Shown: positions 6,433 to 45,788 of the stretch, in pieces | Layout: every line of letters begins with the position of its first letter | How positions within the stretch are numbered: the first letter of the stretch is position 1 | Origin: an uncultured Candidatus Saccharibacteria bacterium | Lineage (GTDB): Bacteria; Patescibacteriota; Saccharimonadia; CAILAD01; GCA-016700035 | Assembly: GCA_964454845.1 (NCBI GenBank) | Contig: CAYVVS010000002.1 | Span: 1,465 to 65,464, forward strand | Length of the DNA: 64,000 nt | Reading direction: 5' to 3' | Translations under genes and position numbers: made by a program | The notes under the pieces: generated by a model | The model's database searches: none | The model's input: only the letters and a program-made list of their open reading frames with translations | What the model was told of the DNA's origin: nothing

Positions 6433-7621
6433 CCATATCCTCCTTTCCTCGAAGCACCACTTCTAAAGTGCCTTTATGTAATTGTAACAGAATCGGAACA
6501 TTCGGCAGTACTTCCGCTGGCGCATGCAAAACTTTGGCACCCTGCCGTACAATTGCGTAACCACGGGCCAAAATACGCTCTGGATTCACACCCGCAAGCG
6601 TTCTCTGCGCCAAAGCCAAACGATATCCCAAGGCATCCAAGCACCTATCGAGCGACCGCCGCATGCGCTCTTCAGCTCGTTCAATTTTATCGGCCAGCTG
6701 CGCAATCAATCTTGACTGCTGGTGGCCAAACATTGTTATAACTCTCTCTACGCGCTCAAAATACTGCCGCATACCAGCAGCACTACGTTCGGTCAATCGG
6801 TCAATATGACTCATCACCTCCCGTTTATCCGGCAAAAGTCGTCGAGCTGCGTCGGTAGGTGTCGATGCGCGCACATCAGCTGCCAATTCGGCCAAGCTGA
6901 CATCATCCTCATGACCAATCCCGACGATGACCGGAATATGGCTGGCGTATACAGCCCTTACGACGTCTTCATGGTGAAAGGTCTGCAAGTCTTCCGCACT
7001 GCCGCCACCGCGAATCAAGACGATTGCTTCCAAGTCGGGCCGTTCGTCGTTGAACTGTCGTAGCGCCCGAACAACATCAGTTGGCGCCTGCATCCCTTGG
7101 ACGTGCACATGAATATGCTCAATCTCCGTTAATGGCCAACGATCTTGAGCGATGGTTATAAAATCATTGTAAGCAGCAGCATCGCGACTTGTGATAAGTC
7201 CAATTTTCTGGGGGTATTCTGGTAAATTTCGCTTACGCGCAACATCAAACAACCCTTCTTTCTCAAATTGCGCCTTTAAAAGTTCATATGCCCGCATAAC
7301 TTCGCCCTCACCAGCCAGCTCAACCTCTTTCACGGTGAGAGAAAACTTGCCCCACTTTGTAAGATTCGGCGTGGCGGCAACTCGAACCAACATCCCATCT
7401 TCTAATACGGTTTTAAGCTGGTACTTTGTCATAAAGCAGCTAATTGTTGTCTCGCTGTCTTTTATATCAAAGAACACCCACTTGCCCTGATTGATACGAA
7501 AACCCGAAATTTCACCCTCTACAACTACTAAGGGATAGGCGTAGCTCAGAGTTTGATTAACAAATTCGCGTAGCTCGGTTACCGAAAGAACTTCTTCAGA
7601 CACTCGTCTTTCCCTCTTCAT
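6398..7621 (-). CDS. xseA: Exodeoxyribonuclease VII large subunit
   Basis: N-terminal OB-fold region (LSVTELREFVNQTL...VVVEGEISGF), LIRGGGSAEDL motif and a C-terminal coiled coil. Confidence 0.9.
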   Translation of the reverse strand: MKRERRVSEEVLSVTELREFVNQTLSYAYPLVVVEGEISGFRINQGKWVFFDIKDSETTISCFMTKYQLKTVLEDGMLVRVAATPNLTKWGKFSLTVKEVELAGEGEVMRAYELLKAQFEKEGLFDVARKRNLPEYPQKIGLITSRDAAAYNDFITIAQDRWPLTEIEHIHVHVQGMQAPTDVVRALRQFNDERPDLEAIVLIRGGGSAEDLQTFHHEDVVRAVYASHIPVIVGIGHEDDVSLAELAADVRASTPTDAARRLLPDKREVMSHIDRLTERSAAGMRQYFERVERVITMFGHQQSRLIAQLADKIERAEERMRRSLDRCLDALGYRLALAQRTLAGVNPERILARGYAIVRQGAKVLHAPAEVLPNVPILLQLHKGTLEVVLRGKEDMDDETQTSLEFS

Positions 7622-8612
7622 CCAAAACCTGCCGCTTGTAAAACCACAGGCCCACCGGAATAAACAGCCAGAGTGCCATTAAACGATATATAGTTGTCAC
7701 CGAAAACGCCAGACCAAACGGTACGCCCAGTGCAACTTCGACCGCCACCATCGTAGCCTCATACATACCTACTCCAGATGTGAAAAATGACAAAGTCGAC
7801 ATCAAAAGCGCAAAAATATAGGCCGCACCAACCATGCCTGGATTCACCACCTGCCCGAAAGCCAAAAACACGATAAAAATACTCAAAATCTCAAACAAGA
7901 TACACATCAATGCATCACTCAATGGCCGCAAAGCTCGCCGTGGATCCTTGGCAAACAGCTCGATTAAGGTACGGTACCCATCCACAAACTGAGTAGTCTG
8001 GCGCTCACCAATCTTGCCTTTGCGTAATAACTTGAGGACCCAGTTGATCGGCCTTGTAGCGTAAAAGAGCACCCTCTCAAACAAGCGCGGATTCAGTGTC
8101 ATGGCGATAACACAGAGGGCCACAAATAATAAAAGACTTACGACAATCAGGATCAAACGATAACTCACCTGGATAATCGATTGCGAGAAAAACAGTACCA
8201 AAAAGCTTATCGCCAAAACCACTACCAAGCTCAAAAACGTTGCAATATACCAAAAAAACTGTGCAATAAATGACTGCTTCTGTGAAATCTTTGACCTAAA
8301 AATCTGAGCAAAATATGCCGCTCCGGAAACACCACCTGTAGGCACAACCGTGTTCACAAAATTCATACTCACCACCCCCTCAAACAAACGCCAAAACGGG
8401 ATACGCTTCTTGTACAGCCCACTAAAAAAGTGGTCGTAAAAACGTGTGCTAGCCCAGTAGTAACCAAACCGAACCGGCAATACCAAAAGTAGCACCCAAA
8501 TATTCAGTTCTTTCATAAGTGAAATAAATTGCTGGAGCTGCCCGGCATTGCGCAAAAATAGCAGCCCCAAGAGTACCAACGCCACGAAAAACGCAAAATG
8601 ACGTAACTTCAT
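7596..8612 (-). CDS. Polytopic membrane protein, flippase-like / LPG-synthase TM-domain-like (UPF0104)
   Basis: 338 aa, about 8 hydrophobic spans. Family call is based on overall look only. Confidence 0.45.
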   Translation of the reverse strand: MKLRHFAFFVALVLLGLLFLRNAGQLQQFISLMKELNIWVLLLVLPVRFGYYWASTRFYDHFFSGLYKKRIPFWRLFEGVVSMNFVNTVVPTGGVSGAAYFAQIFRSKISQKQSFIAQFFWYIATFLSLVVVLAISFLVLFFSQSIIQVSYRLILIVVSLLLFVALCVIAMTLNPRLFERVLFYATRPINWVLKLLRKGKIGERQTTQFVDGYRTLIELFAKDPRRALRPLSDALMCILFEILSIFIVFLAFGQVVNPGMVGAAYIFALLMSTLSFFTSGVGMYEATMVAVEVALGVPFGLAFSVTTIYRLMALWLFIPVGLWFYKRQVLDEEGKTSV

Positions 8613-10126: not shown

Positions 10127-10132
10127 ACCCAT

Positions 10133-10173
10133 GCATACTAAAAAAGCCCCTTCATGGGGCTTTTTTAGTATGC
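10133..10173. terminator. Bidirectional intrinsic terminator between convergent rpmA and the response-regulator gene
   Basis: Perfect inverted repeat gcatactaaaaaagcccc / ggggcttttttagtatgc (18-bp arms, 5-nt central spacer ttcat) with A/T runs on both sides. Confidence 0.8.
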
Positions 10174-10178
10174 AGTCC

Positions 10179-12319: not shown

Positions 12320-13516
12320 TTATTGACGGACGACTTCAAGAGCTTTTTCAAGTTGTGGATCTCGGCCAGCATTGGAGTCTTCAGTAGTATAACCAACCTC
12401 AACATCTGGCTTAATGCCCTCCTTTGAAATATTCACGCCCTTTGGGGTAAACCAGCCAGCGACCGTTACTTTCAACTGAGCACCATTTGAAAGCTGCTTA
12501 ACCTCCTGCACGCTGCCTTTTCCGTAGGTCTTCTCACCAACCAAAATTGCGCGGCCGTTATCCTTCAGAGCGCCGGCCGTGATCTCAGAAGCCGATGCAG
12601 ATCCCTCATTAATCAGTATCACAAGCTTTGCGTTCGTTAAGTTACCACCCGGATTTGCCACCAGCTGCTTTGATTCCATATGGCGGCCACGCTCTTCTAC
12701 CACTACACCGTCAGCCAAAAACTCAGATGAAACTGTTACTGCACTGTTTAAGTAGCCACCCGGATTATCACGTAAATCCAGTATAATCTTACTGACACCC
12801 TGTTTTGCCAAATCGGCTGCGGCGTTACGAATAGCCGTATCGGTATCATCCCCAAAACGACGCACGCGAATGTAACCCACACCTCCATCTTTTACTTCAT
12901 ACTTGACGCTTGAAACCTGAATTTGATCGCGAGTAATTGCCAACTCTTTTGGCTCTTCACCCTCTCGCACAACCGTCAGCTTTACTTCAGTACCTTTTTC
13001 GCCACGAATTTTCTTCACCGCCTCGTCAAGTGTTAACTCGCTCGTGCTCTGTCCGTCTATTGTTGCAATAACATCACCCGCGCGAATACCAGCCTTCGCA
13101 GCCGGAGTTTCATCAATTGGTGCAATAACCGTCAATCGATCATTTTTAAGACCAACCTCAACGCCAATTCCCGAAAGTTGGCCAGCTAAATCGTTAGAGA
13201 GCTCCTCTGCTTCGCTCGCGTTGAGGTAAACCGTATATGGATCGCCAAGGCTCGCAACATAACCACGTAGCGCCCCTTCGGCCTGCTTCTCGTCATTCAG
13301 GTCGCCATTGAAGCTCGACTCAAGAATAGACTGGATTTCACGAAACTGCTCAGAAGTAGCAGCCGCTGTATTGGTTCGCGTGACAACTGCCTTGTAGCCA
13401 AATATACCAATTACACCGCCAATAAGCACTAAAGCTGCAACCCAGCCAGCTAACTGCAGTCTTGTTAAACTTACACCAGGTTTTACAACCGGTGATTGTG
13501 TATCTTTTTCACCCAT
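12320..13516 (-). CDS. Carboxy-terminal processing peptidase (S41) with PDZ domain
   Basis: N-terminal TM, PDZ region (GIGVEVG...AGIRAGDVI), GSASASEI (catalytic Ser) and TYGKGSVQ (Lys). Confidence 0.9.
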   Translation of the reverse strand: MGEKDTQSPVVKPGVSLTRLQLAGWVAALVLIGGVIGIFGYKAVVTRTNTAAATSEQFREIQSILESSFNGDLNDEKQAEGALRGYVASLGDPYTVYLNASEAEELSNDLAGQLSGIGVEVGLKNDRLTVIAPIDETPAAKAGIRAGDVIATIDGQSTSELTLDEAVKKIRGEKGTEVKLTVVREGEEPKELAITRDQIQVSSVKYEVKDGGVGYIRVRRFGDDTDTAIRNAAADLAKQGVSKIILDLRDNPGGYLNSAVTVSSEFLADGVVVEERGRHMESKQLVANPGGNLTNAKLVILINEGSASASEITAGALKDNGRAILVGEKTYGKGSVQEVKQLSNGAQLKVTVAGWFTPKGVNISKEGIKPDVEVGYTTEDSNAGRDPQLEKALEVVRQ

Positions 13517-13558: not shown

Positions 13559-14686
13559 CTAATGGATAAACACCAGCGAATTCACGGGCCAAACAGATTG
13601 AGAATACCGACCACCCCAATCGGCGTTAAATTCCGAAACCAGCACTTGTGTACCGTTCGAGACGATCCCTTCAACAATCATGACGTGACCATACTCTCCA
13701 ACTGGATAGACAGCCGCCGCACCCACTTCTGGCGTAGTATCGACACGCATGCCAAACTTCCCAGCCCAATCTGGCCACTGCTTAGCATTCGCTGGTCCCA
13801 AGAAACCCCAAGCAGGAAGCGGCCGACCGATGCTCGCACGCTTCCAGGCAGCGTAACTAGTGCACTGACGATAATAGAAGCCCCATGGATCAACACCGCG
13901 GCTTGGAAAAGGCTCCACAGCCGCCCATGGATAGTCGGTCGTCATAGTAAAATCGCGGCCTAGGCTTTGTGCTGCAATTGCTGCCGCCTGCTGAGCCCTT
14001 AACGTCTGTAGACGCATCGTGTCTACCTCTACCAGCGCTCGGTAAGCTGCCTCATCACCACGAGTTTTAGCCAGAAGCTCGGCCTGTTCAGCCTCTTTGG
14101 CGACAATTGCTTTCTCCTCTAGCCCTTCTTGCTCTTCTTTAATGCGCAGCTGTCGAGAAAATTCTTCTAGCTGTTTTTTAGCATTTTTTATGCTATCCAC
14201 ATTGTCCATAATCTTATTGCGCAGAGCATCGTAATATTCCTGTCTTCCAACAAAGTCCGACAAATTCTCACTAGAGGCAAACACTTCCATTGGGGTGACA
14301 TCTCCTTGCTTGTAGGCGGCGGCAATGTTCTGACGCAATAGCTCCGTGCTTTTTTTCAGGTCGGCTTCGGTATTTTTACGGTCAAGTTTTGTTTGCTCAA
14401 TGCGTAAGCGAGTAAGCTCAAGGTTTGATCGAGCAGCCGATAACTCCGCCTGAATAGCTGTTAATCGATTTTGCAAGGTGTCGCCTTCAGCTTGCTTTTG
14501 GTTGACGACCGCTTGGTTGTCCTGAATCTGCTTTGTTACAGCATCAATGAGCGGCTGTAGGTCATCGGCATGCGCCGGGCGAGCCTGATACCACACCGAC
14601 GCTGAGACTACAAAAACAAACAGAAAAAGCCCAGCGAATGTGATTCGAAAAGCCCTTCCTGTTGTTTTTTTGTTTTTGATAGCCAT
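13559..14686 (-). CDS. PcsB-like secreted coiled-coil peptidoglycan hydrolase with C-terminal CHAP domain (copy 1)
   Basis: Signal/TM segment and about 200 aa of coiled coil. CHAP Cys (YYRQCTSYAAWK) and His (GHVMIVEG). Confidence 0.8.
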   Translation of the reverse strand: MAIKNKKTTGRAFRITFAGLFLFVFVVSASVWYQARPAHADDLQPLIDAVTKQIQDNQAVVNQKQAEGDTLQNRLTAIQAELSAARSNLELTRLRIEQTKLDRKNTEADLKKSTELLRQNIAAAYKQGDVTPMEVFASSENLSDFVGRQEYYDALRNKIMDNVDSIKNAKKQLEEFSRQLRIKEEQEGLEEKAIVAKEAEQAELLAKTRGDEAAYRALVEVDTMRLQTLRAQQAAAIAAQSLGRDFTMTTDYPWAAVEPFPSRGVDPWGFYYRQCTSYAAWKRASIGRPLPAWGFLGPANAKQWPDWAGKFGMRVDTTPEVGAAAVYPVGEYGHVMIVEGIVSNGTQVLVSEFNADWGGRYSQSVWPVNSLVFIH

Positions 14687-18849: not shown

Positions 18850-19940
18850 TCTTTCTGTTCGTCAGATAAATTCTGCGTCAAATAAGCTTCGATAAATGGT
18901 TCAATTTCACCGCCTAAAACCGCATCCGTATCACTAGTTTCATAATCCGTACGATGATCCTTCACTTTTTTATAAGGGTGTAATACATAGCTGCGAATTT
19001 GCTGACCCCAGTCGGCTGACTGAACTTTCCCTCGCAGCTCAGCCACAGAATCTAGATGCTGTTCGCGCGCCAGCTCAGCAAGTTTAGCCGCCAAAATTGA
19101 CATGGCTTTATTCTTGTTCTTTAGTTGAGAGCGCTCATTCTGAATAGATACCACAATTCCTGTTGGAATGTGCGTAATGCGTACCGCCGAATCAGTCGTG
19201 TTTACGCTCTGACCACCATGTCCACCAGCGCGAAAAACGTCGATGCGCAAATCTTTTTCATCCAGTTCTATCTGCTCCATCGGGATTTCTGGAATCACAT
19301 CAACCAGCGCGAAACTTGTTTGGCGCAAACTATCACTATTAAAAGGAGAAAGTCGAACTAGCCGGTGTACACCCTTTTCACTTTTCAGCTTCCCAAACGC
19401 AAATGGCCCTTCAATTTCTAGGGTGGCGGATTTTATGCCAGCTTCTTCGCCTCGAGAAATATCAACTAGCTTAGCAGTTAACTCAAGTTTTTCTGCGGCT
19501 CGAGTGTACATCGTGAGTAACATCTCCGCCCAATCTTGCGCGTCTGTGCCACCAGCACCAGCCGAAATTTGTACAATTGCCGTATTCTTATCGTAGTCAC
19601 CGGCGAGTTTTACGGTAATCATCATCTGACGCACCGACTCTTCGATACTTGCAGTAGACTCCTCCATTGCATCCAACAAAGACTCGTCGGACATCTGCGC
19701 CAGCTCCAGCATGGTCTTAATCGACTCCTCCATGGTTTGCCAGCTCTCAATAAATTTACGCAGCAATGCAGCTTCTTGGCTCACTTTTTGAGCCTCGCCT
19801 TGATCAGACCAAAAATCAGGCGCATTCATTCGAGCCTCAAGCTCATTTAACACCTTTTGCTCGCTCTCAAGATGCAGCTGCTCTATCGCACCCTGCACTT
19901 CCGCGAGTAATTTTGTCAGTCGATCAATAATTGGTTTCAT
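18846..19940 (-). CDS. prfB: Peptide chain release factor 2 (single uninterrupted frame)
   Basis: Trimmed to ATG 19940 (MKPIIDRL...). SPF tripeptide (RLSPFNS) and GGQ ([16 protein letters not shown]). No in-frame TGA/frameshift site. Confidence 0.95.
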   Translation of the reverse strand: MKPIIDRLTKLLAEVQGAIEQLHLESEQKVLNELEARMNAPDFWSDQGEAQKVSQEAALLRKFIESWQTMEESIKTMLELAQMSDESLLDAMEESTASIEESVRQMMITVKLAGDYDKNTAIVQISAGAGGTDAQDWAEMLLTMYTRAAEKLELTAKLVDISRGEEAGIKSATLEIEGPFAFGKLKSEKGVHRLVRLSPFNSDSLRQTSFALVDVIPEIPMEQIELDEKDLRIDVFRAGGHGGQSVNTTDSAVRITHIPTGIVVSIQNERSQLKNKNKAMSILAAKLAELAREQHLDSVAELRGKVQSADWGQQIRSYVLHPYKKVKDHRTDYETSDTDAVLGGEIEPFIEAYLTQNLSDEQKD

Positions 19941-19983
19941 ATCGGTAGTATTATACCTGTTTCTAGCTCCATATAAACCAAAA

Positions 19984-20014
19984 CTCCCCAACGAGACGAA
20001 TCTCGTGTGGGGAG
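19984..20014 (-). terminator. Intrinsic terminator downstream of the LPXTG gene
   Basis: Minus strand reads ctccccacacgagattcgtctcgttggggag followed by ttttggttt. Confidence 0.6.
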
Positions 20015-20043
20015 CTTGGCGTATACCTACAAACCGCAGGCTA

Positions 20044-21216
20044 TTACTTTACAACGTTTTTCAACGCAGCGCTCAAACCTTTACGGCTCTTTCGGTAGAA
20101 ATAACCAGCGTAGGTGAGACCACCGGTTCCCAACAGACCAGCAACACCAGTCTCGACACCTGTCTGAGGCAGGGTTGGCTGCTCAGGAGTTACCGGAGTG
20201 GTAGGAGTTGGAGTTACAGGAGGAGTGGTTGGGGTAGGGGTTGGCTTACCTGCAACAGTGACGTTTGTCTTTGCTGCATTAAAGTACTCGCCCATGCCCT
20301 CTGGCTTTACAATACCAACGTTTTTGAATGTATAGTTACCTGGCTTAAGATTTGAGTCAATCTTTGCCTGGAACCATACAAAACCGTTGCTACCTGGGGT
20401 GTAATTTCCGACGTTAACGCCACCTTTGGTGATGTTATCGGAGTTTATCTTCGTACCAGTTGGGTTCGATGCATTTTTAATCATCGTAGTACCCGGTACA
20501 TAGGTAACGTTAGCTGGCATGTTATCAGCAATGATAACGTTGTTGAGCGTAGTATTACCTTCGTTTTTGTAGGTAATCAGGTACTCAAGGGTATCACCAG
20601 CCTTGGCAGTGTTTTCAGTTTTCCACTCTTTTTCGCCAAGTACACGTACTTGCTTAGTGATAGAAACTGCAGGAGTTTTTACACGGGCAAGAACTGTAAC
20701 ATTGGCTTCATAGTTGAAGCATGGCTTAGCGTTCTCAAGAACAATTCCTGTTCCAACAACTTGGTCACTGATTTTTTCAGTTACCCAGTTAGGCTGCTCG
20801 TTGGTACCCTTGTTGTGGCGCCACTGAGCGGAACCTGGAATGTATTCTAGACGGCTCTGATCCAGAGCGAGGTTGACGTTTGCAGTGTCAGTAACGGTAT
20901 TCGCGTTATCAGCACTAATGGTTCCCTTTACAGTCTGAGCTTTGCCAGGCTGAGTTGGGAGGTCGATTTTAACTTTTAGATTGTTTGCAACTTTATTAGA
21001 GTTAGCTTCCTCTTTGTTGTGGTACCAGATTTGTACTTTTACCACTTCGTCGGTTTTTGCGTTGGTAGATTTGGTATAGGTGGTTGCACCAGCAGTTTGG
21101 TTAGCAACTGCAGTACGACCTTCTATGGCAACCTGACCAGCTGCACCAGCTACGGCAGGAACAGCTACAAGAGCAGCTGCAGCGAGCACGTAACGGAGCT
21201 TAGCTAAAAACTTCAT
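20044..21216 (-). CDS. Cell-wall-anchored surface protein (LPXTG-type sorting signal, DUF11-like repeat region)
   Basis: Trimmed to ATG 21216 (MKFLAKLRYVLAAAALVAVPAVAGA signal peptide) with AAGGGAGAA SD. C-terminus: PT-rich linker, LPQTG, a hydrophobic stretch and a basic tail (YFYRKSRKG). Confidence 0.8.
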   Translation of the reverse strand: MKFLAKLRYVLAAAALVAVPAVAGAAGQVAIEGRTAVANQTAGATTYTKSTNAKTDEVVKVQIWYHNKEEANSNKVANNLKVKIDLPTQPGKAQTVKGTISADNANTVTDTANVNLALDQSRLEYIPGSAQWRHNKGTNEQPNWVTEKISDQVVGTGIVLENAKPCFNYEANVTVLARVKTPAVSITKQVRVLGEKEWKTENTAKAGDTLEYLITYKNEGNTTLNNVIIADNMPANVTYVPGTTMIKNASNPTGTKINSDNITKGGVNVGNYTPGSNGFVWFQAKIDSNLKPGNYTFKNVGIVKPEGMGEYFNAAKTNVTVAGKPTPTPTTPPVTPTPTTPVTPEQPTLPQTGVETGVAGLLGTGGLTYAGYFYRKSRKGLSAALKNVVK

Positions 21217-21366
21217 ATAGTTCTCCCTTCTCATCGCTATAACGCGAGGAAAAAGCTTATGGTTATTCTATAATTTCTTTCAATCGTCAAGAACGTTTGC
21301 TTCTGTTAGGAAACGATATTCGCGTTGTTAAGTAACTCTTTCACACCTGTTGTGAATGACTTAAGT

Positions 21367-21395
21367 ATTCTATCAGATTTATAGTAGTTTGTCAA
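21367..21395 (-). promoter_or_regulatory. Predicted sigma70-type promoter for the LPXTG gene (about 145-nt leader)
   Basis: Minus strand TTGACA-17 nt-TAGAAT with a TG at the extended -10 position (ctgaTAGAAT). Confidence 0.5.
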
Positions 21396-21442
21396 TGGTT
21401 TTGCTTATGCTTTTTATACTGGCTTGACTCAATAAAAGGATG

Positions 21443-21472
21443 AGCCCCAGAGCGCCGAAGCGCCCTGGGGCT
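21443..21472 (-). terminator. Intrinsic terminator of island gene A
   Basis: 13-nt arms agccccagagcgc / gcgccctggggct (one mismatch). The loop reads UUCG on the transcribed strand and is followed there by a T-rich tract (ccttttatt). Confidence 0.7.
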
Positions 21473-21509
21473 TAGATGAACCTGAACATCCGATGGAGCT
21501 CAGATCCGG

Positions 21510-22592
21510 TTACGGAGCCGTGACGGCTCCGCTGTTGGTCTGGTCACCGACGTTCGTGTCCATGTCGGGGTTTGAAGCCCCGGCACTTCCACCGGTGGTG
21601 GTGCCAGACGGACCGTCCGTCGCGCCCGAAGGCGTGGTGACACCTGATCCAGTACCAGTTCCGGGGGTGCCGAACGGAGTGGCTCGGTAGGGATCGGCGC
21701 CGTTCCGAGTTGCTTCCGCGTCTCGGTTCTGCTGGTTGGTCACCGCCTCGGCGTTACCGGGAGTGTAGCCCGGCGTAGCAGCCTGCGGGTTGGAGCCAAC
21801 GGGATCCATGTCCGGACCGGAGTCCGGGGTGCCGCAGTAGAGACCGGTCTGACCCGCGCACTTGCCCGAAGGCGTCGTGGTTGGGGTTGTGTGCCGACCA
21901 GACTTACCTGGTGTCACCGGCCGCGAGGGCTGGTTCGACGCAGGCGGAGCACCCTTGCCGGGCACGCTCGGTGGGAAGTTCTGCTCCACGGGCTGGTAGC
22001 CACAGTTGAGCTTGAACTGCTTCACGGTCCCATCGGGGAACGTGAAGCGGATCACCTTGAACGGCGCGGCTTCAACCGGGACCTGGTAGATCTCGGGGAT
22101 GGTTCTCCCCTTGTCCTCCATGTCCATGGTCTGGTACGCACCGCTCATCTCGACGATCTCCACCTTGATGGCCTCGTTGAGGCGCGCCTGGAAGCGCATC
22201 TCGCTGAGAGCCCAAGCATCCGGGTTCGACATGAGGTCGACGGTCTTCTGCACTCGGGTCGGCGCATCCGAGAACTCGTTGAAGAGGTACTCGGAGTCAC
22301 CCACGAGGAGCGCGGCGTCAGAGCAGCGTCGCGAGGCGAAGTCCGCCTGCGTTGCTGCCACATTGGCCGGATCCTCCGGAGCGGCGGGGCCGAACTGGTT
22401 CCCCTCCGTGAAACGGGAGAAGAAGATCTGGTTCGTGCCACACGCAGCCGGAGTGGTTGAGGCGGTCGGATCGGCACCCGCATCGGGCGGGCCGACGATC
22501 ACCTTGATGACCGGGAAGATCAGCAGCAACAGCGCAGCAGCGCCGATGATGCCGAAGAAGAACCTCTGCTGAGCAGAGTTGGGAGCGCTCAT
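21510..22592 (-). CDS. Island gene A: N-terminally anchored, Cys-containing exoprotein with Pro/Thr/Gly-rich tail (360 aa), function unknown
   Basis: GGAGG 6 nt upstream of the ATG. TM anchor FFFGIIGAAALLLLIFPVIKVIV, five Cys in the ectodomain, low-complexity C-terminus. High GC3. Confidence 0.7.
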   Translation of the reverse strand: MSAPNSAQQRFFFGIIGAAALLLLIFPVIKVIVGPPDAGADPTASTTPAACGTNQIFFSRFTEGNQFGPAAPEDPANVAATQADFASRRCSDAALLVGDSEYLFNEFSDAPTRVQKTVDLMSNPDAWALSEMRFQARLNEAIKVEIVEMSGAYQTMDMEDKGRTIPEIYQVPVEAAPFKVIRFTFPDGTVKQFKLNCGYQPVEQNFPPSVPGKGAPPASNQPSRPVTPGKSGRHTTPTTTPSGKCAGQTGLYCGTPDSGPDMDPVGSNPQAATPGYTPGNAEAVTNQQNRDAEATRNGADPYRATPFGTPGTGTGSGVTTPSGATDGPSGTTTGGSAGASNPDMDTNVGDQTNSGAVTAP

Positions 22593-22725
22593 CGCGCACC
22601 TCCTTGTGGGTCGGTGTCGCGAATGCGACTCTTGATGGATGTTCAGGTTCTGGTTCTGACATCAAGGACGCACTACTGTTTTACCAGCTATGGGTACTTA
22701 AGGCCAGAATAAAACCAAAATGTGT

Positions 22726-22753
22726 CTTCCTGGGGCCCGAAGGCCCCAGGAAG
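22726..22753 (-). terminator. Intrinsic terminator of island gene B
   Basis: Perfect 12-bp stem cttcctggggcc / ggccccaggaag. UUCG loop on the transcribed strand, followed by acacattttggttttatt. Confidence 0.7.
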
Positions 22754-22760
22754 CAAGGGG

Positions 22761-23537
22761 TCAGTTCGCCGAAGCGGTGGCTGCAGCAGCAGCCTGCGTG
22801 GTCGAGAACTGGCTCCCAGAGAGAGGGAGTGATGGGGGTGTGGTCCCCACAGCCTGCAGCGGCTGGTCGGCCGGAGGCGGAGGCGGCGTGACAGCAGCGA
22901 CCGGCTGGTCGGCCGGGGGCTGCGGTGCCACCACCACGTTTCCACTCGCCGAGGCGGAGGAACGCGTGATGATGCTGCGCCCGTTGCCAGGCAGGCAGGT
23001 CAGCACGATGGCAACGATGGCACCGATGAGCACCGCCCAGAACCATTGGTTCTGCGTGGTGAACCGATCGCCTCGCACCCACTCCACTCCTTCGATGAAG
23101 AAGTAGACGACGAGCGCGGTGATGACCCCACCGATGAGGGGGATCCAGCCGTTGGCTGCCTCCAACCGCGCGATCGCGGTGGCGTGAGCGTTCGAGTGGA
23201 CCTGCAGCCCTTCGATGCGACTGCCCAGACCGAGAACGTTGTTCTCGACGGTTCCGAGCCGCTGGCTGAACTGCTGGAGTTCCCCCCTGAAGCCGGAGAC
23301 CAGGCCCCTGACGTCTTCACGTTCGCGATTGAGCTCCTCGAGCTCTTCACGCACCATGCCCTTGAACCACTCACTGGTGGCGGCATCGAGCTGGACCTTA
23401 CGGTCCTGGACGGCAGCGTCGAGACGCTGCAGGTTGTCCTCCGCCTCCTTGAGGCGACGGGTGATGCGCTGCATCTCGGCACTGCGAGCCGCAGCGTTGG
23501 TCACCGACATCTGTCGGTCTCGTGCTGTTCTGTTCAT
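22761..23537 (-). CDS. Island gene B: coiled-coil protein with two TM helices and Pro-rich tail (258 aa), function unknown
   Basis: GGGAGGGG SD just upstream of the ATG. About 125 aa heptad-like N-terminus, TMs WIPLIGGVITALVVYFFIEGV and WFWAVLIGAIVAIVLTCLPG, and a repeated PPADQP(V/L) tail. Confidence 0.7.
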   Translation of the reverse strand: MNRTARDRQMSVTNAAARSAEMQRITRRLKEAEDNLQRLDAAVQDRKVQLDAATSEWFKGMVREELEELNREREDVRGLVSGFRGELQQFSQRLGTVENNVLGLGSRIEGLQVHSNAHATAIARLEAANGWIPLIGGVITALVVYFFIEGVEWVRGDRFTTQNQWFWAVLIGAIVAIVLTCLPGNGRSIITRSSASASGNVVVAPQPPADQPVAAVTPPPPPADQPLQAVGTTPPSLPLSGSQFSTTQAAAAATASAN

Positions 23538-23603
23538 ATCCCCTCCCGGGGTGTGTTGTGCCGGGGTTTTTCAACACCCGGGTTGAGGTACGAATACCGT
23601 TGC

Positions 23604-23632
23604 ATAATAGCATAAAATGCATAATTTTGCAA
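23604..23632 (-). promoter_or_regulatory. Predicted promoter of island gene B inside an AT-rich spacer
   Basis: Minus strand TTGCAA-17 nt-TATTAT. The spacer line 23581-23640 is 19/60 G+C. Confidence 0.45.
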
Positions 23633-23685
23633 TAGTTTTATGTAAAGTCAATATGCTTATGCCAAAGAAAGTTAACAAAAAAATA

Positions 23686-23712
23686 GGGCGACCTGGTGTA
23701 CCCAGGTCGCCC
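23686..23712 (-). terminator. Intrinsic terminator of island gene C
   Basis: Perfect 11-bp stem gggcgacctgg / ccaggtcgccc with a 5-nt loop. On the transcribed strand it is followed by tattttttt. Confidence 0.75.
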
Positions 23713-23721
23713 AGATGAGCA

Positions 23722-25296
23722 TCAAGCAGCGCTGTGCTGCCCGTATTCCAGAAGGAGACGTCGATCCGCCTCCTCACGCTGCTCTTGAGGAGTCCGATAT
23801 GCCCAGTGCTCAACCGGGTCATCATCTTCGGCAACCCGCTGCATCATGGCGACAACTACCTCTTCTGGCAAGTTCGCCAGAATGGACTCGTCCGACTTCC
23901 GCTTACCGCGACTCGCGTCACGATCTGCACTGTCAGCTGGTCCATCCGCCTGAGGCTGCTGAGCGTCCGACTCTTCGACTGGATCGCTGGACTGCCGCCC
24001 TGCAGCTGGAGCCTTCGGCGAGGGGCGCATGGCCGCTCGGCCACCACCCCGCACCACATGGCGCTCCGGCTCGGGAGCATCACTGCTGCTGACGGTACGA
24101 CGACCCTCACTCGTCCGGACCACAGGAACCGGCTGAGTAGGAGGTCCTTCGAGCTCCTTCGGAACACCGCTGTTTGCAACACCCGTCTCGGGCTCGCTTG
24201 CAGCCGTGTCATCCGTAGTACTGCTCGCCGGCTCCTCGGATGCGGGTCGAGGCGGAAGCCCCGGTACCGCTGTGCGCTTGGCACTCCGTGGGTGACGGCG
24301 AGAACTTGAGCTCTGCTGACGTCGGTAGTGAGTCTCCGAAGGCCAGGTGAAGTCCTCCAGGTTCTCCTGGATGGTTTCCTTGCCCTCGAAAACTCGCAGG
24401 GTGGACCGAACCGCAATCCGGTAGTACCACACCAGCTCCCGCAAATCGGGATTGGCTGCGATCTCATCCCTGGTGGGCGAGACAGGTACGTCCTGCCCCT
24501 CCTCACGAGGAAGCTGGAACAGGCGCTTTTCGGCCTCTTCAGGCGACTGATTCAGTGCCTGATACAGAGCGTAGCCCTGCTCGTAGACCGCGAGAGCAAG
24601 CGCCCAGACTGCAGCATCGGCTTCGTCGCGCGTGCCGCTTTGGCGAGCTGCGACAGAGGCTTCGAGCAACGGTCGCAGAGCCTCGCGATAGGAGTCGAGC
24701 TGACGCTCTCCATCCACGGGAGGTGTCGGTGCGGCCGAAGCAGCTTCGGGCTCCGGAGCCGGAGGTGTCTCGCCGGTATCGACTGGGGCACCGTCGGGTG
24801 CCGAAGCACTCGGAGAGTCCTGATCGAAGGGCAGCGAGCCAGCGCCATCAGCGTCGTCCGGCTCGGGCTGTTCACCAATGAACCGGTCGACGGCGGAGGC
24901 AAGCGTGTTCGGAACGAACTGGTTGCCGTTGTGAATGGCTTGCCTCTCCTCGCCCTCTTCGAGATCCTCGTTGAGGATCTCCTGCAAGAGCTCGAGAGCT
25001 GACGCCTCATCCAGCGACGGATCGGCCTCCATCAACCTTGCGGTCAGATGGGAAGCCCGAAGCTGAATCCTGCGAGGCGCAGGTGCTGCAGCCGCCTCGT
25101 CGGCGGCGTCATCTGCGGGATCTGCGAGATGTTCTTCGTCGGCCACGATGGCCTCCTGTTCTCCGGCAACACCGGGGTTGGGGCCATCATCGGCCGGGGT
25201 TGTACCACCACACGTGGCGGCGACTTCATCTGGATCGAGCTGGGAGAATTCATCCAGGCTCATTCCGGACCTGCCTTCACTCATGCTGTACCTCAT
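23722..25296 (-). CDS. Island gene C: acidic, largely low-complexity protein (524 aa; no TM, no recognised motif)
   Basis: Longest frame of several overlapping high-GC frames. It is co-directional with its neighbours and bracketed by the promoter and terminator above. The start may be the fifth codon (ATG 25284, GAGG upstream). TGA stop. Confidence 0.6.
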   Translation of the reverse strand: MRYSMSEGRSGMSLDEFSQLDPDEVAATCGGTTPADDGPNPGVAGEQEAIVADEEHLADPADDAADEAAAAPAPRRIQLRASHLTARLMEADPSLDEASALELLQEILNEDLEEGEERQAIHNGNQFVPNTLASAVDRFIGEQPEPDDADGAGSLPFDQDSPSASAPDGAPVDTGETPPAPEPEAASAAPTPPVDGERQLDSYREALRPLLEASVAARQSGTRDEADAAVWALALAVYEQGYALYQALNQSPEEAEKRLFQLPREEGQDVPVSPTRDEIAANPDLRELVWYYRIAVRSTLRVFEGKETIQENLEDFTWPSETHYRRQQSSSSRRHPRSAKRTAVPGLPPRPASEEPASSTTDDTAASEPETGVANSGVPKELEGPPTQPVPVVRTSEGRRTVSSSDAPEPERHVVRGGGRAAMRPSPKAPAAGRQSSDPVEESDAQQPQADGPADSADRDASRGKRKSDESILANLPEEVVVAMMQRVAEDDDPVEHWAYRTPQEQREEADRRLLLEYGQHSAA

Positions 25297-25344
25297 CTGC
25301 TGTGTCGGTTTCGGAATAAATTGTCAGGTGCAAAAAACACAAAA

Positions 25345-25373
25345 ACCATACCACAAATTTGCAATATGGTCAA
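25345..25373 (-). promoter_or_regulatory. Predicted promoter of island gene C
   Basis: Minus strand TTGACC-17 nt-TATGGT in the AT-rich 25300-25390 spacer. Confidence 0.45.
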
Positions 25374-25389
25374 TGTTTATTGGTTACGT

Positions 25390-25728
25390 TTAATGCTGGC
25401 TGGCGGCTTCTTCTCGTACTTTTGCAAGCACGGCCTGCTGATCGGCGACGAGCTGATCTCCAACTTCTTGGGCGGTAGAAGCTATCAATTCATCATAATT
25501 AGGCACGAGCTGTCGCAAGCGGCCATCAACCTGATCTCCGCCAGCATCAATTAGCCGTTCGAGCTCATTCATCTGTTCTTCAGTGATCTGATCCGACACC
25601 TTACTTAGAACACGCGTCATCGTTAGGTCGGCAAGCTGCTCGGCAAGCTGCTGTTTTTGTTCATCTGTTGCCGAAGCCATGCCAAGTCGGGTGAAAATAT
25701 CTGGCTGATTAGGTTGTGCTGTATCCAT
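25390..25728 (-). CDS. Small acidic helical protein (112 aa), function unknown
   Basis: Track ORF with backbone-like composition, directly downstream of the 999-aa gene. No TM. Confidence 0.6.
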   Translation of the reverse strand: MDTAQPNQPDIFTRLGMASATDEQKQQLAEQLADLTMTRVLSKVSDQITEEQMNELERLIDAGGDQVDGRLRQLVPNYDELIASTAQEVGDQLVADQQAVLAKVREEAASQH

Positions 25729-25748
25729 AAATTACTCCTTATGCTTAC

Positions 25749-28748
25749 CTACGCCGGGGGTACGGGTATATTAAAGTTAGTTAGAATTTGCTCAGTGGGC
25801 ATGCCATTCCGCACCTGCATCGCGATAGCTGGCAATACTTTAGCTATCTCCTCATTGCCTGGATTCACTGACGCTACACCAATAATGTCATTTAGCTGAC
25901 GTAATTGATTAACGCCCATCCCCTGTGAAGCCCGATTATACGCCTCATCCAATAGCTTCTGCTTAACTTGTTCTGCAGCCACCGCTCCTGGATTAGCCTC
26001 AGCAAACCGCCCAAGCTCCTGCCAGTTTTTAGGAGCATCAGAACTGGTACGCATGATGCCAGTAAACCTATCCCTCAGTGGATCGTATGGCTTATCCACA
26101 CCTGGATCTTTCGTCGGACCGTTAAAGAAGTGCTTCAGAACAAATGGTGCCGCTGCAGCTGCCACGCCAACCACCGCTGCCCCTCGCTTAGCGCGCTTGT
26201 TCGATTTTGCATCACTATTTACACGGTCCAGTTGATTCTTAAGGAGTAAATCTGCCACCGTAGCTGAAGATTCTGGGTTACCAGCTAGGGCCCCTCGCAG
26301 CACTCGATCACTATACAAGGTGCCGGCATTGGCCTCGAGAAACGCTGCAATCTCCTGCTCGGTCATATTTTCAGCGCCAAGCCCCTCTGCGTTGCCTGAA
26401 ATGTATTCCATATCACGCTCCGCCTTCAGTTGCGTACTAGCCGACTGGGCATTCCAAGTCTCAGTGCGACCACGTAGATCGGCTTTATTCGCTCGACGAT
26501 TATGGAGCATATTCACGCCAGCTTCAGTCGCCATAAATCCACCAGTACCACGCATCACCGCACCAGCACCCGCTACCATTGCGCTACCTACACCGGCGCC
26601 AACGCCGGTCATCGCAATTGCAGCACCCGTTATACCAAGAGCCGCACCAACTGCCAACCTGGTTCGACGACCATTCTTAGAGCGCCAGAAAGTACGGAAC
26701 TTTTCAGATTTTGTACCAACCTTGAGTGCGCACTGTGCAGCTTCAACCTTTGAGCGGGTTTGCGCCATCTCAACAATCATCTCAACCTCAACGCGACGCG
26801 TAACCTCTTCTACGCCTTGACGCAAGCTCTCTAGCTGCTCATCGCACTTCTGGATGGCTTCGCGCGCCTCTAGGAGTCGCGCCTTACGTCGATCAATACG
26901 CGATTGGCGCAATGCAGCCGGCAGTTCAGTATCAGCCTCCAATCGAGCGATTGCCTGGTCTTGAGCTGTCATTTTCTGCTGCATGTCTGTCTTATAGGTG
27001 TTAATGTCATTTTCTACGCCACGATAATCTGCCAGTACAGCGGCCCAATTATCGGTATATTGTGTGTAAGCCAACTCTAGGCTCGCATTTGCTTGCTCTA
27101 GAGCTGCTTGATCACGCTTTGTTCGGCCAAAGAATTTTTCCCGCTGTTCTTTTGCCTGGGCTACCGCCTGAATCTGGGCATCAACGTTTAAGCGTGCGCC
27201 CTCGGCCAAGGCAAGAATTTCGCTAGGCTGCGGCACTCTCGGGACACCATCTACATAACCTTCGCTTTCATACGGCTCGCCATCCTCTGGGGAATTCCTG
27301 CCGCCTTCGCCATCATTCTGAAGTTTTTCAATGCGCGAAATACTATCTTCATTAATTGCAAACTCAGTGCCGCTCTCTAAGTTCAGAAGTCGCAACCGAG
27401 CTGGGTCTTCACCAACTTTTTGAATAACCATATGCGGAGCTTTGTCGCCATCCGCTTCAGTATAAGTGACCATTTCACCATTCTTGAATGTGACACCACC
27501 AATTTCAAACTGGTAATCGTTCTCGATTGATTCTTGTCGCTCAACGCGCGTCATCGGCTGAAGCTGGGCTTCCCCAGATTGCGCAGGATGTGGGGAAGGC
27601 GCCTGGTCAAAATTTGTTTGCGTAGTAGATACTGGCTCTGCCTGGTCAGCACGAGGCTGACTGCCGCTCGCTTCAGTAGCAAGCGGGCTCGCGGGAGCAC
27701 CATAAAACGCTTCTGTATCATTCTCGGCAAGTATTTGCTTTAAATCATCGCCAAGTTCATGGCCAAATTTATCATTTATTGCTTGATCGCTGATTTGTTC
27801 TGGCTGTGCTGGCATTGCGCCGCTCCTGTTTTGTTCGTCCTGACTATCATAACCGGTTTGATTATCTGCTGGCAAGTCAGCGCGTTGAGTTTCTCGAGCC
27901 CAGCCATCTGGTGGCAGGCTGCGCTCATACTCCTCATCTTTATCGTAATCATTACTGTCAAAATATCGGGCCTCTCGGATACGCCTGGAATCCTCGGCCT
28001 CCTGGGCTTGTCTTCTTTGACGCGCATTACGCTGGGGTTGCCGCTTACCAGCACCCTGCTTTTCTTGCTTATCACTCGATGCATCCTTCAGGCTTCCGTC
28101 TGAGTTATAGCGATCGTAAAATTCTGACCAAATTGCCTTCGTAACTGGCCGCATACCGGCTTTCACTTCACGCGCAAGTTCATCCAGCAAAATATCAGCA
28201 GGCTTCGCACCTCCACCCAATGAATCGCCATGTCGGCGGTTCACGCGCGTCTGCACTCCATCCCAGCCTTTAATTTTACGCAATTCTCGCATTATCTCGT
28301 TCAAGGGACGGCCAGTATATCTGTAGGGATCATTCGTACGTGAGTGCTCCGTGCGGTCGGCTTGCGGTGTATCATCAATGAGTACAGGATTATCAAGTTT
28401 GGTCGTGAAATTCTCCATAGCTTGCTGAATTTCGACACGCTCACTCTGCAGGGATGCGAGGTGGCTCGAGACACGTTCCGATTCCTCGGAATCACCAGAT
28501 TCACCCAGCGAGGCCAGCTTACTCTCAGCTTGAGCAATTGCTCGCTCTACTTGTGGTAACTGTGCTGCCACGGCCCCAAATGTCGGCGCTTTACGCGTAT
28601 CCGCAGGGGTAAGCTCTACTTCAGCGTCATCGGTATGCGCCTGTGATAACTCACTAGCTAATTCAGCGCCTCGAGACCCTGAATCTCCAAACTGATTTGG
28701 ATCTAGCTCGTCAAAGCCACGCATAACATCATGTGATTTATCACCCAT
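25749..28748 (-). CDS. Giant (999 aa) protein: acidic disordered N-terminal half, long coiled coil, Gly/Ala-rich TM segments; function unknown
   Basis: Single long ORF. TM-like LAVGAALGITGAAIAMTGVGAGVGSAMVAGAGAV and AAVVGVAAAAAPFVL. Sampled composition is intermediate (34/60 and 33/60 G+C at 26521 and 27961). Confidence 0.7.
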   Translation of the reverse strand: MGDKSHDVMRGFDELDPNQFGDSGSRGAELASELSQAHTDDAEVELTPADTRKAPTFGAVAAQLPQVERAIAQAESKLASLGESGDSEESERVSSHLASLQSERVEIQQAMENFTTKLDNPVLIDDTPQADRTEHSRTNDPYRYTGRPLNEIMRELRKIKGWDGVQTRVNRRHGDSLGGGAKPADILLDELAREVKAGMRPVTKAIWSEFYDRYNSDGSLKDASSDKQEKQGAGKRQPQRNARQRRQAQEAEDSRRIREARYFDSNDYDKDEEYERSLPPDGWARETQRADLPADNQTGYDSQDEQNRSGAMPAQPEQISDQAINDKFGHELGDDLKQILAENDTEAFYGAPASPLATEASGSQPRADQAEPVSTTQTNFDQAPSPHPAQSGEAQLQPMTRVERQESIENDYQFEIGGVTFKNGEMVTYTEADGDKAPHMVIQKVGEDPARLRLLNLESGTEFAINEDSISRIEKLQNDGEGGRNSPEDGEPYESEGYVDGVPRVPQPSEILALAEGARLNVDAQIQAVAQAKEQREKFFGRTKRDQAALEQANASLELAYTQYTDNWAAVLADYRGVENDINTYKTDMQQKMTAQDQAIARLEADTELPAALRQSRIDRRKARLLEAREAIQKCDEQLESLRQGVEEVTRRVEVEMIVEMAQTRSKVEAAQCALKVGTKSEKFRTFWRSKNGRRTRLAVGAALGITGAAIAMTGVGAGVGSAMVAGAGAVMRGTGGFMATEAGVNMLHNRRANKADLRGRTETWNAQSASTQLKAERDMEYISGNAEGLGAENMTEQEIAAFLEANAGTLYSDRVLRGALAGNPESSATVADLLLKNQLDRVNSDAKSNKRAKRGAAVVGVAAAAAPFVLKHFFNGPTKDPGVDKPYDPLRDRFTGIMRTSSDAPKNWQELGRFAEANPGAVAAEQVKQKLLDEAYNRASQGMGVNQLRQLNDIIGVASVNPGNEEIAKVLPAIAMQVRNGMPTEQILTNFNIPVPPA

Positions 28749-45152: not shown

Positions 45153-45761
45153 GTGAAGCGGAGGGTGGAGAGGAGTAGTTCTTCTCGGGTTTCCGAGAGA
45201 CCTATGAGTATCTACACACATATCATGACGTCTATCGTCTTGGTATTCGCTCAGGTGGCATCATATGCTGTGCAACTTCCCGCCACCGCCCAGCTCACGC
45301 AAACTGCGCAAGCTGGCAGCACAAGCACCCACACAATCCAACTCACCACTAACTCGTATCAGCCCCTCGTGGTTGCATCGGTTACACCAAGCTTCGACGA
45401 AGCTGTTGTAAGCCCGTTGCGTGCCGCGCAGGCTGCTGAAGAGGCGAGCAAGAAGGCTCAAGAAAAGGCTAAAACGGTAGTCCGTAAGGTTACCCAAAAG
45501 GCTGCTCCACTCGTTATCGGTGGATCTGACGCCTTCGCTAAGCTCCGCTTCTGTGAGGCTGGTGGTGACTACGCTAAAAACACTGGTAACGGCTACTACG
45601 GTGCCTACCAGTACAACATTGGTACTTGGGCAAACTTTGGTGGTTTCGCGCGGCCTGACCTCGCTCCACCAGAGGTTCAAGATGCCAAGGCTCGCGAGAC
45701 TCAAGCCCGTCGTGGCTGGAATCCATGGCCATCATGTGCCCGTAAGCTTGGCTTGATGTAA
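45153..45761 (+). CDS. Rpf-like (resuscitation-promoting-factor type) secreted transglycosylase
   Basis: C-terminal LRFCEAGGDYAKNTGNGYYGAYQYNIGTWANFGG matches the Rpf lysozyme-like core (catalytic Glu in the CE motif). N-terminal signal-like region. The start is GTG 45153 or ATG 45204. Confidence 0.75.
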   Translation: MKRRVERSSSSRVSERPMSIYTHIMTSIVLVFAQVASYAVQLPATAQLTQTAQAGSTSTHTIQLTTNSYQPLVVASVTPSFDEAVVSPLRAAQAAEEASKKAQEKAKTVVRKVTQKAAPLVIGGSDAFAKLRFCEAGGDYAKNTGNGYYGAYQYNIGTWANFGGFARPDLAPPEVQDAKARETQARRGWNPWPSCARKLGLM

Positions 45762-45788
45762 ATCAGCCGTGCCTGAAAGGTCATAAGC

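Follow-up and report, generated by a model that had tools for sequence, protein, structure and literature searches.

Introduction

Ribosomal-protein and S-layer genes are codon-optimised and highly expressed, and their mRNAs are long-lived. Genomic islands carry an atypical base composition which, in the amelioration model of Lawrence and Ochman, decays toward the host value. Morons are defined, after the HK97/HK022 type, as genes that have a promoter and a terminator to themselves and that depart in G+C content from the genes around them (Cumby et al. 2012, PMC3594210). In the Bacillus subtilis hbs mRNA, a 14-bp pairing of the 5' untranslated region (UTR) with the 3' UTR limits cleavage of the leader by RNase Y (Braun, Durand and Condon 2017, PMC5737220). 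Here, we compare with these systems a block of three minus-strand open reading frames (ORFs), genes C, B and A, which fill the interval 21.4-25.3 kb of a 64-kb stretch of Saccharibacteria DNA (the window). An earlier reading, made from the letters alone (the sequence-only reading), had taken each ORF for an autonomous, moron-like promoter-gene-terminator cassette, and had supposed that the genes arrived, or are maintained, as independently expressed modules. We lean slightly toward a different explanation, in which the block is native, conserved and lineage-specific, and consists of separately terminated units whose mRNAs are selected to be G+C-rich, structured and hairpin-capped.

Three observations are new here: an excess of coding-region structure in 12 lineages, complementarity between the 5' and 3' flanks of gene A, and a promoter of gene C that lies in the arms of an upstream hairpin. 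An atypical G+C content combined with a gene's own promoter and terminator is routinely read as a mark of foreign DNA, a rule that appears to mislead in this case. In Patescibacteria genomes, such genes may be mislabelled by programs that call islands or morons from composition.

Results

The C-B-A Block Lies at the Same Chromosomal Site in 12 Lineages

The backbone G+C content is ca. 48% across the window, with the exception of the interval occupied by the three genes, where it is 55-64%. The deviance noted in the sequence-only reading was thus recovered: the ORFs have a G+C content of 0.63-0.65, while the spacers within the trio are at 0.37-0.54, with 19 G+C among the 60 nucleotides (nt) at 23581-23640. 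The G+C content of third codon positions (GC3) is about 0.44 in the backbone and ranges from 0.34 to 0.53 in 27 other window genes (values for the trio are given in Table 1). Pfam annotation of the flanking ORFs gives the gene order serS, SecA, a 999-aa (amino acid) protein, DUF5663, C, B, A, DUF11/CLIPPER, RF2 and an FtsE-like ABC ATPase. Farther out, the window encodes the ribosomal proteins L21, L27 and L31 as well as EF-Ts and PrmC. The genes secA and prfB are often neighbours in other bacteria. The window is a stretch of cellular Saccharibacteria (TM7, Patescibacteria) chromosome, not a phage.

Scans of genomes and of metagenomes yielded three loci each. The comparison covers 12 lineages, namely the window (W) and L001, L005, L007, L009, L011, L012, L013, L018, L019, L020 and L021, with only C, B and A located in L012 and L013. 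The three genes follow one another in the same order in all 12 lineages, and at the same place where flanks are visible. The lineages share one arrangement, in which the large protein is followed by DUF5663, then by C, B and A, and then by the DUF11 protein, except that DUF5663 stands ahead of the large protein in L011. RF2 comes after the DUF11 protein in all nine lineages whose locus reaches that far, and SecA lies ahead of the block in all five whose locus reaches secA. Since the arrangement is common to 12 independent assemblies, an assembly chimera is ruled out.

Among 5.8 billion proteins, 16 homologues of A, 13 of B and 10 of C were found; the named ones are all from Saccharibacteria, and every homologue contig that was fetched has the same synteny. 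Gene A is carried by three species-representative genomes, all of uncultured Saccharibacteria, and a profile search extended the A family to 125 clusters. An exact look-up of the window's own proteins found none on record.

Because the trio occupies the same chromosomal site in relatives, it is not extra DNA relative to them. The three genes resemble morons in that each has its own terminator, C and B have promoters, and their composition deviates with sharp boundaries; B also matches, weakly, the XhlA-like phage 'hemolysin' PHROG phrog_1193 (E 4e-6). However, they are flanked by secA, prfB, serS and ftsEX, with no phage or prophage context, and they occupy one place in all 12 lineages, with no evidence of spread between kinds of genome. 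The 20 kb around the island (15-35 kb) had no megablast match in 50,697 phage records, no IMG/VR contig encodes a relative of A, PHROG contains no match for A, C or their neighbours, and a plasmid search returned only a 77-nt match to secA. The genes checked near the island include no recognisable integrase (some of the window ORFs were scanned), no tRNA adjoins the island, the sole tRNA being 18 kb off, and no direct repeats flanking it were found. Protein B, read by eye, has an N-terminal coiled coil, two transmembrane (TM) helices and a Pro-rich tail. Its PHROG match probably reflects this coiled-coil-plus-TM make-up; a similar XhlA/hemolysin-like Pfam match (E 9e-4) is below the cut-off. 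The moron label was therefore abandoned, and we consider it very unlikely that the trio represents foreign cassettes moved horizontally into a phage or prophage backbone.

The High Third-Position G+C Content Persists Past Synonymous Saturation

In every lineage, GC3 is 0.68-0.87 in A and B and 0.51-0.70 in C, while in neighbouring genes it is 0.37-0.66. Between W and most lineages, SecA and RF2 have reached or come close to saturation at four-fold degenerate sites (identity 0.26-0.37, versus 0.24-0.27 expected from composition), and those of A and B are near saturation for distant lineages (0.25-0.45, versus about 0.3). Since GC3 is unchanged after this synonymous turnover, it is best seen as a stationary state held by some force rather than as a relic of recent transfer. 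The G+C-rich composition of the trio thus appears to be maintained, and not to be the scar of an import. The trio is like horizontally acquired islands in its abrupt deviation in GC3 and GC skew over a few adjacent genes, but it differs from them in the lack of patchy spread, an adjoining tRNA or flanking direct repeats, with no mobility gene recognised among the genes checked and no donor lineage emerging from the homologues found, and in a deviation that is undecayed despite synonymous turnover. These results speak against the arrival of the genes as modules.

In A and B, TTC (26/26), ATC (23/23) and AAG (13/13) are the only codons used for their amino acids and NTA codons are absent; C- and G-ending codons are enriched, GCG, CCG, GTG and GAG are raised, and GCT (30%) and GGT (31-39%) are still frequent. 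The DUF11 gene and the ribosomal-protein and EF-Ts genes share a bias (r = 0.50) in which GCT, GGT, CGT and ACT/ACC are preferred and G-ending codons are shunned. The bias of A and B correlates poorly with that of the ribosomal-protein and EF-Ts genes (r = 0.14) and with that of the sortase-substrate DUF11 gene (r = 0.14), and translational selection as the cause of the high GC3 was ruled out on this basis. Thus, the trio is like codon-optimised, highly expressed genes such as those of ribosomal proteins or S-layers in strong codon bias, a strong Shine-Dalgarno (SD) sequence, structured leaders and strong terminators, but differs from them in that A and B favour the G-ending codons that native ribosomal-protein genes shun. 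Antisense dual coding was also rejected: long antisense ORFs exist, but four-fold sites near saturation indicate no added constraint.

The bias of A and B is shared (r = 0.74-0.76) by C and by three other window genes, at 45153-45761, 51304-51588 and 51749-52303. The first of these encodes an Rpf-like transglycosylase that looks secreted or membrane-anchored, while the other two encode small proteins that look membrane-embedded. Just past the genes at 45153-45761 and 51749-52303 lie two of the window's strongest terminator hairpins (45787-45820 and 52357-52390, respectively), and two of the three genes have excess mRNA structure by the test described below (z -3.2 and -2.8).

If the genes had been acquired horizontally, long ago, by the ancestor of this clade from a high-G+C organism, such as an actinobacterium that hosts the epibiont, and had retained a donor-like composition, this would account for the codon usage of A and B, which looks like that of a high-G+C genome in its invariant TTC, ATC and AAG, its lack of NTA and its enrichment in C- and G-ending codons. 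The genes of the same style elsewhere in the window include the Rpf-like transglycosylase, whose domain is typical of Actinobacteria, and a weak Rv2743c-like match, and terminators with weak U-tails, such as those described below, are common in Actinobacteria. However, the frequent GCT and GGT would be unusual for a genome of 65-70% G+C, and among the 5.8 billion proteins no homologue was found outside the syntenic Saccharibacteria set. With synonymous sites saturated and GC3 at 0.7-0.85, retention would still need an active force. Moreover, a distant member of the A family has a GC3 of 0.29 in a genome of 45% G+C, which argues against a high-G+C donor for A; A may instead be native to low-G+C bacteria and have become G+C-rich in this clade. 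We therefore regard a retained donor composition as unlikely.

Coding Regions of the Block Carry Excess mRNA Structure

Folding stability was calculated in 100-nt windows and compared with that of the same genes after permutation of synonymous codons within each gene. The z-scores of A, B and C in the window are -3.0, -4.4 and -5.7, respectively, with a mean gain of 2.7-4.9 kcal/mol per 100-nt window, while across 32 other genes of the window the median of z is -0.14, with -3 reached by just two of them. The same pattern was observed in the 11 other lineages, where the median z is -5.6 for C, -5.7 for B and -5.6 for A, as well as -4.5 for DUF11, versus -0.9 for RF2, -0.4 for DUF5663 and -1.0 for SecA. 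The excess survives shuffling in 40-codon blocks. These results point to selection on the transcripts of the block for local structure, beyond the contribution of composition, and such selection may be what raises GC3.

An excess of RNA structure over synonymous shuffles is not predicted by another explanation, which takes the locus for a hotspot where variable surface genes recombine and has GC3 driven up by GC-biased gene conversion. Exchange does seem to take place at this locus. Protein B is 41% identical between W and L013, versus ca. 70% for A and C, and B proteins are 41-83% identical among W, L012, L013 and L021, yet the promoter and leader of B, in the 140 nt upstream of the gene, are near-identical in these four lineages. 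In addition, the sortase-substrate gene (CLIPPER), A and B of W are closer to those of L021 than to those of L019, which is not the case for RF2. This mosaic pattern suggests allele exchange by recombination inside the clade. As a source of the composition, however, gene conversion is quite unlikely in our view: the G+C shift ends at gene boundaries, with island spacers at 37-54%, and the sortase-substrate gene, which shows the strongest sign of recent exchange (four-fold identity 0.72), still has a GC3 of only 0.37-0.58. Gene-conversion effects reported in bacteria are far below +0.3 GC3.

Each Gene Is Followed by a Hairpin, and C and B Are Preceded by Conserved Promoter-Like Sequences

The three hairpins of the sequence-only reading, with G/C stems of 11-13 bp and two cUUCGg loops, were confirmed by folding (Table 1). 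They have z-scores of -4.2 to -5.7 relative to dinucleotide shuffles and are among the six strongest of the window, the backbone of which holds about eight further strong intergenic terminator hairpins. In both the A and the B hairpin, a C-G pair closes a UUCG loop. All 12 lineages have a hairpin of -19 to -32 kcal/mol after each of C, B and A, with unrelated stem sequences; structure is thus kept at the orthologous position of each gene while sequence has changed, as is seen with intrinsic terminators. Across the lineages, the hairpins are located 7 to 31 nt past the stop codon of C, 7 to 37 nt past that of B and 26 to 53 nt past that of A. The UUCG loop is kept in seven of 12 lineages at the B hairpin and in three of 12 at the A hairpin.

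A U-tract directly after the stem is found at the C hairpin only, and in 10 of the 11 lineages listed the equivalent hairpin runs into a T-rich tail, with 7-9 T among the 10 nt that follow. The U-runs of the A and B hairpins are displaced by 4-6 nt, and at the B hairpin the displacement recurs in 12 of 12 lineages. With its canonical U-tract, the C hairpin is like a canonical intrinsic terminator. More generally, the three are similar to intrinsic terminators, both cUUCGg-capped ones and the U-tail-poor 'I-shaped' ones of Actinobacteria, in stems of 11-13 bp rich in G/C, tetraloops and a location 7-53 nt past stop codons and ahead of the next promoter; the displaced U-runs of A and B set them apart, and termination is here predicted from sequence. 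The backbone terminators of the window are mostly of the bidirectional A-tract/stem/U-tract type, unlike the A and B hairpins.

All sequence elements that had been named for C, B and A are present, including the promoter-like pairs TTGACC-17-TATGGT and TTGCAA-17-TATTAT, and the AT-rich promoters are of backbone style, as had been proposed. Promoter-like matches in this region are not above chance (18 versus 14.8 +/- 3.7 in shuffles), so the support for the C and B promoters comes from their conservation. At the C promoter, the invariant columns of an 11-lineage alignment are TTGAC and, within the -10 element, the T, the A and the last T; the spacing is 17 nt in ten lineages, L009 being misaligned, and TG usually precedes the -10 element. 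At gene B, a block consisting of GGCATAAG, TTGAC, TTGCAA, a 17-nt spacer and TGCTAT(T/A)(A/G)T is kept in eight lineages, with at most 2 of 82 nt differing among W, L012, L013 and L021.

The C promoter sits inside a hairpin with a U-run (25344-25371), its -35 element in the 5' arm and its -10 element in the 3' arm. This hairpin probably terminates the upstream DUF5663 gene. Its arms co-vary, with 78% of alignment cells paired and six pairs showing double changes, versus 35-45% in slid controls; in relatives, for example, arm pairs GACCATACC/GGTATGGTC and GACTTTACC/GGTAAAGTC are found, while the T, A and final T of the -10 element stay fixed. Transcripts reading in from DUF5663 would contain the whole hairpin and stop, while those started at the C promoter would lack its 5' arm.

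For gene C itself, the start codon at 25284 is the likelier one, since a GAGGT SD sequence lies at 25290-25294 and this start matches the database homologue P0030. Protein C is acidic and largely disordered, with three helical domains; a TM segment or signal peptide was not noticed, and it is presumed to be cytoplasmic. No match to protein C was found in Pfam, NCBIfam, PHROG or among PDB folds.

The early leaders of the three genes contain related motifs: GCACCTGACAA in C (25321-25331), TCGTACCTCAAC in B (23582-23593) and G(A/T)ACCTGAACA in the 5' arm of A. A palindrome, CACACCAGGTGTG, is located at ca. 21320-21345 in the CLIPPER leader and is conserved in relatives. For these early-leader motifs, the palindrome included, possible roles are those of an anti-SD-like element, of a protein site and of a processing site.

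Table 1. Coordinates of the C-B-A block, its predicted expression signals and the adjoining genes, in positions of the window.
Feature	Position	Strand	Description
DUF5663 gene	25390-25728		upstream of C
Gene C promoter (putative)	25344..25373	minus	-35 TTGACC 25368-25373; -10 TATGGT 25345-25350; 17-nt spacing
Gene C leader motif	25321-25331	minus	GCACCTGACAA; ca. 14 nt past -10; G, A, CCT conserved in >=90% of 11 aligned lineages
Gene C	ORF 23722-25296; likelier start 25284	minus	520 aa from the likelier start; G+C 0.63; GC3 0.63
Gene C terminator (predicted)	hairpin 23686-23712; feature 23676..23712	minus	11-bp G/C stem; 5-nt loop; UAUUUUUUUG tail; -24.6 kcal/mol
Gene B promoter region (putative)	23604..23663	minus	GGCATAAGC box; TTGACT 23646-23651; TTGCAA 23627-23632; 17-nt spacer; TGC-TATTAT 23604-23609
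Gene B SD	23540-23547	minus	GGGAGGGG
Gene B	22761-23537	minus	258 aa; G+C 0.65; GC3 0.78
Hairpin after gene B	22726-22753	minus	12-bp stem; cUUCGg loop; -25.8 kcal/mol; U-run displaced 5 nt (ACACAUUUUGG)
Conserved T-rich block	22704-22720	minus	TTTTGGTTTTATTCTGG; just past B hairpin
Gene A helix, 5' arm	22637-22650	minus	GAACCUGAACAUCC; leader, 44 nt before start codon
Small hairpin	22616-22629	minus	after 5' arm, before SD
Gene A SD	22599-22603	minus	GGAGG
Gene A	21510-22592	minus	360 aa; G+C 0.65; GC3 0.78
Gene A helix, 3' arm	21478-21491	minus	GGAUGUUCAGGUUC; between stop codon and terminator
Gene A terminator hairpin (predicted)	21443-21472	minus	13-bp stem; GC-UUCG-GC loop; CAUCCUUUUAUU tail; -28.2 kcal/mol
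DUF11/CLIPPER gene	20044-21234; 275-nt leader 21235-21509		LPQTG sortase substrate

The Flanks of Gene A Contain Complementary, Covarying Arms

The leader and trailer of gene A contain two 14-nt sequences of 100% perfect complementarity (Table 1). Gene A is alone in this respect among 42 window genes, the flanks of the 41 others being complementary over no more than 8 nt. In an alignment of ten lineages, 86% of the cells of the arms are paired and five pairs show double changes (for example, U-A to C-G, A-U to U-A, and U-A via U-G to C-G), while slid controls give 23-43% paired; none of 500 shuffles reached the covariation score. Where only one side has changed, the outcome is in all seven cases a G-U pair on the sense strand, a pattern that speaks for a helix in RNA rather than a site in DNA. 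In most lineages, a small hairpin of variable sequence is found between the 5' arm and the SD sequence.

Gene A shares with the hbs mRNA a leader/trailer complementarity of ca. 14 bp with compensatory change, a short mRNA (here predicted to be monocistronic), a strong SD sequence and a structured leader. It differs in gene, phylum and arm sequences, and the evidence for it consists of complementarity and covariation only. Conserved 5'/3' complementarity was not found for B and C; that seen in L011 does not recur in the other lineages. In L011, which is the most distant syntenic lineage, the leader and trailer of C share a perfect 14-nt complementarity (5245-5352 / 6556-6600) and those of B a 10-nt one (6850-6891 / 7813-7850), both with sequences different from those of gene A. 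Inside gene A of the window, a 6-bp hairpin, CUCUGC-UCA-GCAGAG, is located on the minus strand at 22564-22578, 14-28 nt past the start codon.

The arms could in principle be a DNA site, the ends of an invertible segment or a cassette boundary, as they form perfect inverted repeats that bracket exactly the SD sequence, ORF and stop codon, and as recombinase sites, too, are expected to have copies that co-vary. Yet the orientation is the same in 12 of 12 independent assemblies, and none of the genes checked near the island was seen to resemble a recombinase, some of the window ORFs having been scanned. Both arms lie between the preceding hairpin and A's own terminator, so that one transcript would hold both, and the G-U pairs described above are on the sense strand in all seven cases. 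We consider a DNA site extremely unlikely.

A scan of the 168-nt spacer ahead of gene A (22593-22760) found no sigma-70-like -35/-10 pair. Of the autonomy that had been ascribed to each ORF, separate termination looks likely for all three from the sequence, and so do separate, conserved promoters for C and B, but the autonomy of A is not shown, because no promoter was found in its spacer. Co-transcription of B and A, with the B hairpin acting as a partial terminator or attenuator and A having no promoter of its own, would agree with this, as well as with the weak tail of the B hairpin (ACACAUUUUGG) and its U-run, displaced in every lineage. The arms also bracket A much as the flanking sequences of rRNA processing stalks bracket RNAs that are cut from longer transcripts. 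On the other hand, the B hairpins are strong (-22 to -28 kcal/mol), and just past them lies a block, TGGT(A/T)TTAT(TCT), that fits an extended -10 element in several lineages. In the window, this T-rich block (22704-22720) may belong to the B hairpin as its displaced U-tract, or it may act for gene A as a -10-like element. We consider co-transcription rather less likely than not; it would reduce the three supposed cassettes to two and a half, and it is compatible with a native block of RNA-selected genes.

Protein A has an N-terminal TM anchor, a helix-plus-sheet domain at residues 50-205 (modelled, with a predicted local distance difference test score, pLDDT, of 76-92), a Cys-X7-Cys motif and a conserved Gly/Thr/Pro-rich tail. 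No PDB fold match was found for it.

A Proposed Native Block under Selection at the RNA Level

In the explanation toward which we lean, the block was inserted long ago into an ancestral hpf-secA-prfB-ftsEX neighbourhood, and C, B and A would since have been inherited vertically, A as a membrane-anchored protein, B as a coiled-coil membrane protein and C as an acidic, partly disordered one. C and B would be transcribed from sigma-70-type (extended -10) promoters just past the preceding hairpin; since hairpin is followed by promoter in both cases, the two genes would be insulated from transcription reading in from upstream. Gene A would be served by its own promoter, or by transcripts that in part read through the weak-tailed B hairpin and then pair their ends or are processed. 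Selection would act on the transcripts themselves, producing compact, nuclease-resistant and long-lived monocistronic mRNAs, with dosage set gene by gene. The helix of gene A may work like the 14-bp 5'/3'-UTR interaction of hbs, shielding the leader from RNase Y.

Several points weigh against this explanation. Transcription start sites, 3' ends, half-lives and expression levels are all deduced from the letters of the genome. The shuffle test shows that structure is in excess, but not what purpose it serves, and leaves the high GC3 without a mechanistic explanation; because the DUF11 gene combines excess structure with ordinary GC3, structure and G+C enrichment are separable. Lacking an immediate U-tract, the A and B hairpins may be weak terminators or mere 3' stabilisers, and the spacer of A, as mentioned above, yielded no promoter pair. 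The incongruent similarities of L021 and L019 imply recombination in the locus, so that inheritance is not purely vertical. In the helix alignment, arms were anchored by hand, and L005 and L020 were omitted as unalignable. Finally, the minimum free energy (MFE) fold of the full-length transcript holds the helix in 11 of 12 lineages, but control MFE folds often pair the ends of arbitrary transcripts as well. The MFE result is therefore a weak test when taken alone, and the case for the helix is carried by the perfect 14-mer and covariation; MFE counts of long-range pairs were dropped as a test for the same reason.

A wider version of this explanation is possible but tentative. In one Saccharibacteria clade, RNA-level selection on envelope-associated genes (C, B, A and others, for example those at 45153-45761 and 51304-52303) may keep them G+C-rich, over-structured and hairpin-capped, and the A mRNA closed, as a long-lived-mRNA design in an epibiont unable to make its own nucleotides. 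If so, heterogeneity of GC3 within a genome would arise from selection on mRNA structure, and not from transfer, expression-linked codon choice or gene conversion. Should the RNA-level explanation be true, the block would offer a testable case of mRNA-structure selection that shapes gene-specific base composition, and the gene A helix would be the second covariation-supported bacterial 5'/3'-UTR pairing, after hbs. The Saccharibacteria-specific envelope proteins encoded beside a very conserved sortase substrate would then be candidates for a role in the epibiotic lifestyle.

The Sortase-Substrate Gene and Other Features of the Window

The DUF11 protein encoded next to gene A carries a signal peptide as well as a PT-rich linker and a sortase signal, LPQTG, and the block looks like an envelope or surface module. 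The protein is more conserved than SecA (85% versus 78% amino acid identity between W and L001). Its gene combines native-optimal codon bias, reduced synonymous divergence and excess mRNA structure. The CLIPPER leader contains two promoter-like sites and conserved blocks, including ATAACCATAAGC ca. 30 nt before the start codon in most lineages.

An Rfam scan of 19500-26500 gave no credible match, and the window shows no enrichment of motif CCATAAGC. Over 20001-23000 (CLIPPER, A and B), the sign of the plus-strand GC skew is reversed, at +0.07 to +0.09 versus ca. -0.13 elsewhere; the change is due to C-rich third positions on the coding strand. In L007, RF2 is bracketed by copies of a G+C-rich palindrome of ca. 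39 nt, GGCCAGGCCUUGGUGCCAAGGCCUGGCC (ca. 12700-12796 and 13880-13965), apparently a palindromic element that is repeated in that genome. At 10132-10174, just past the L27 gene, lies the hairpin that is strongest in the window; it has a 19-bp stem of -31 kcal/mol with an A-tract/U-tract on both sides and is a bidirectional terminator of the backbone type.

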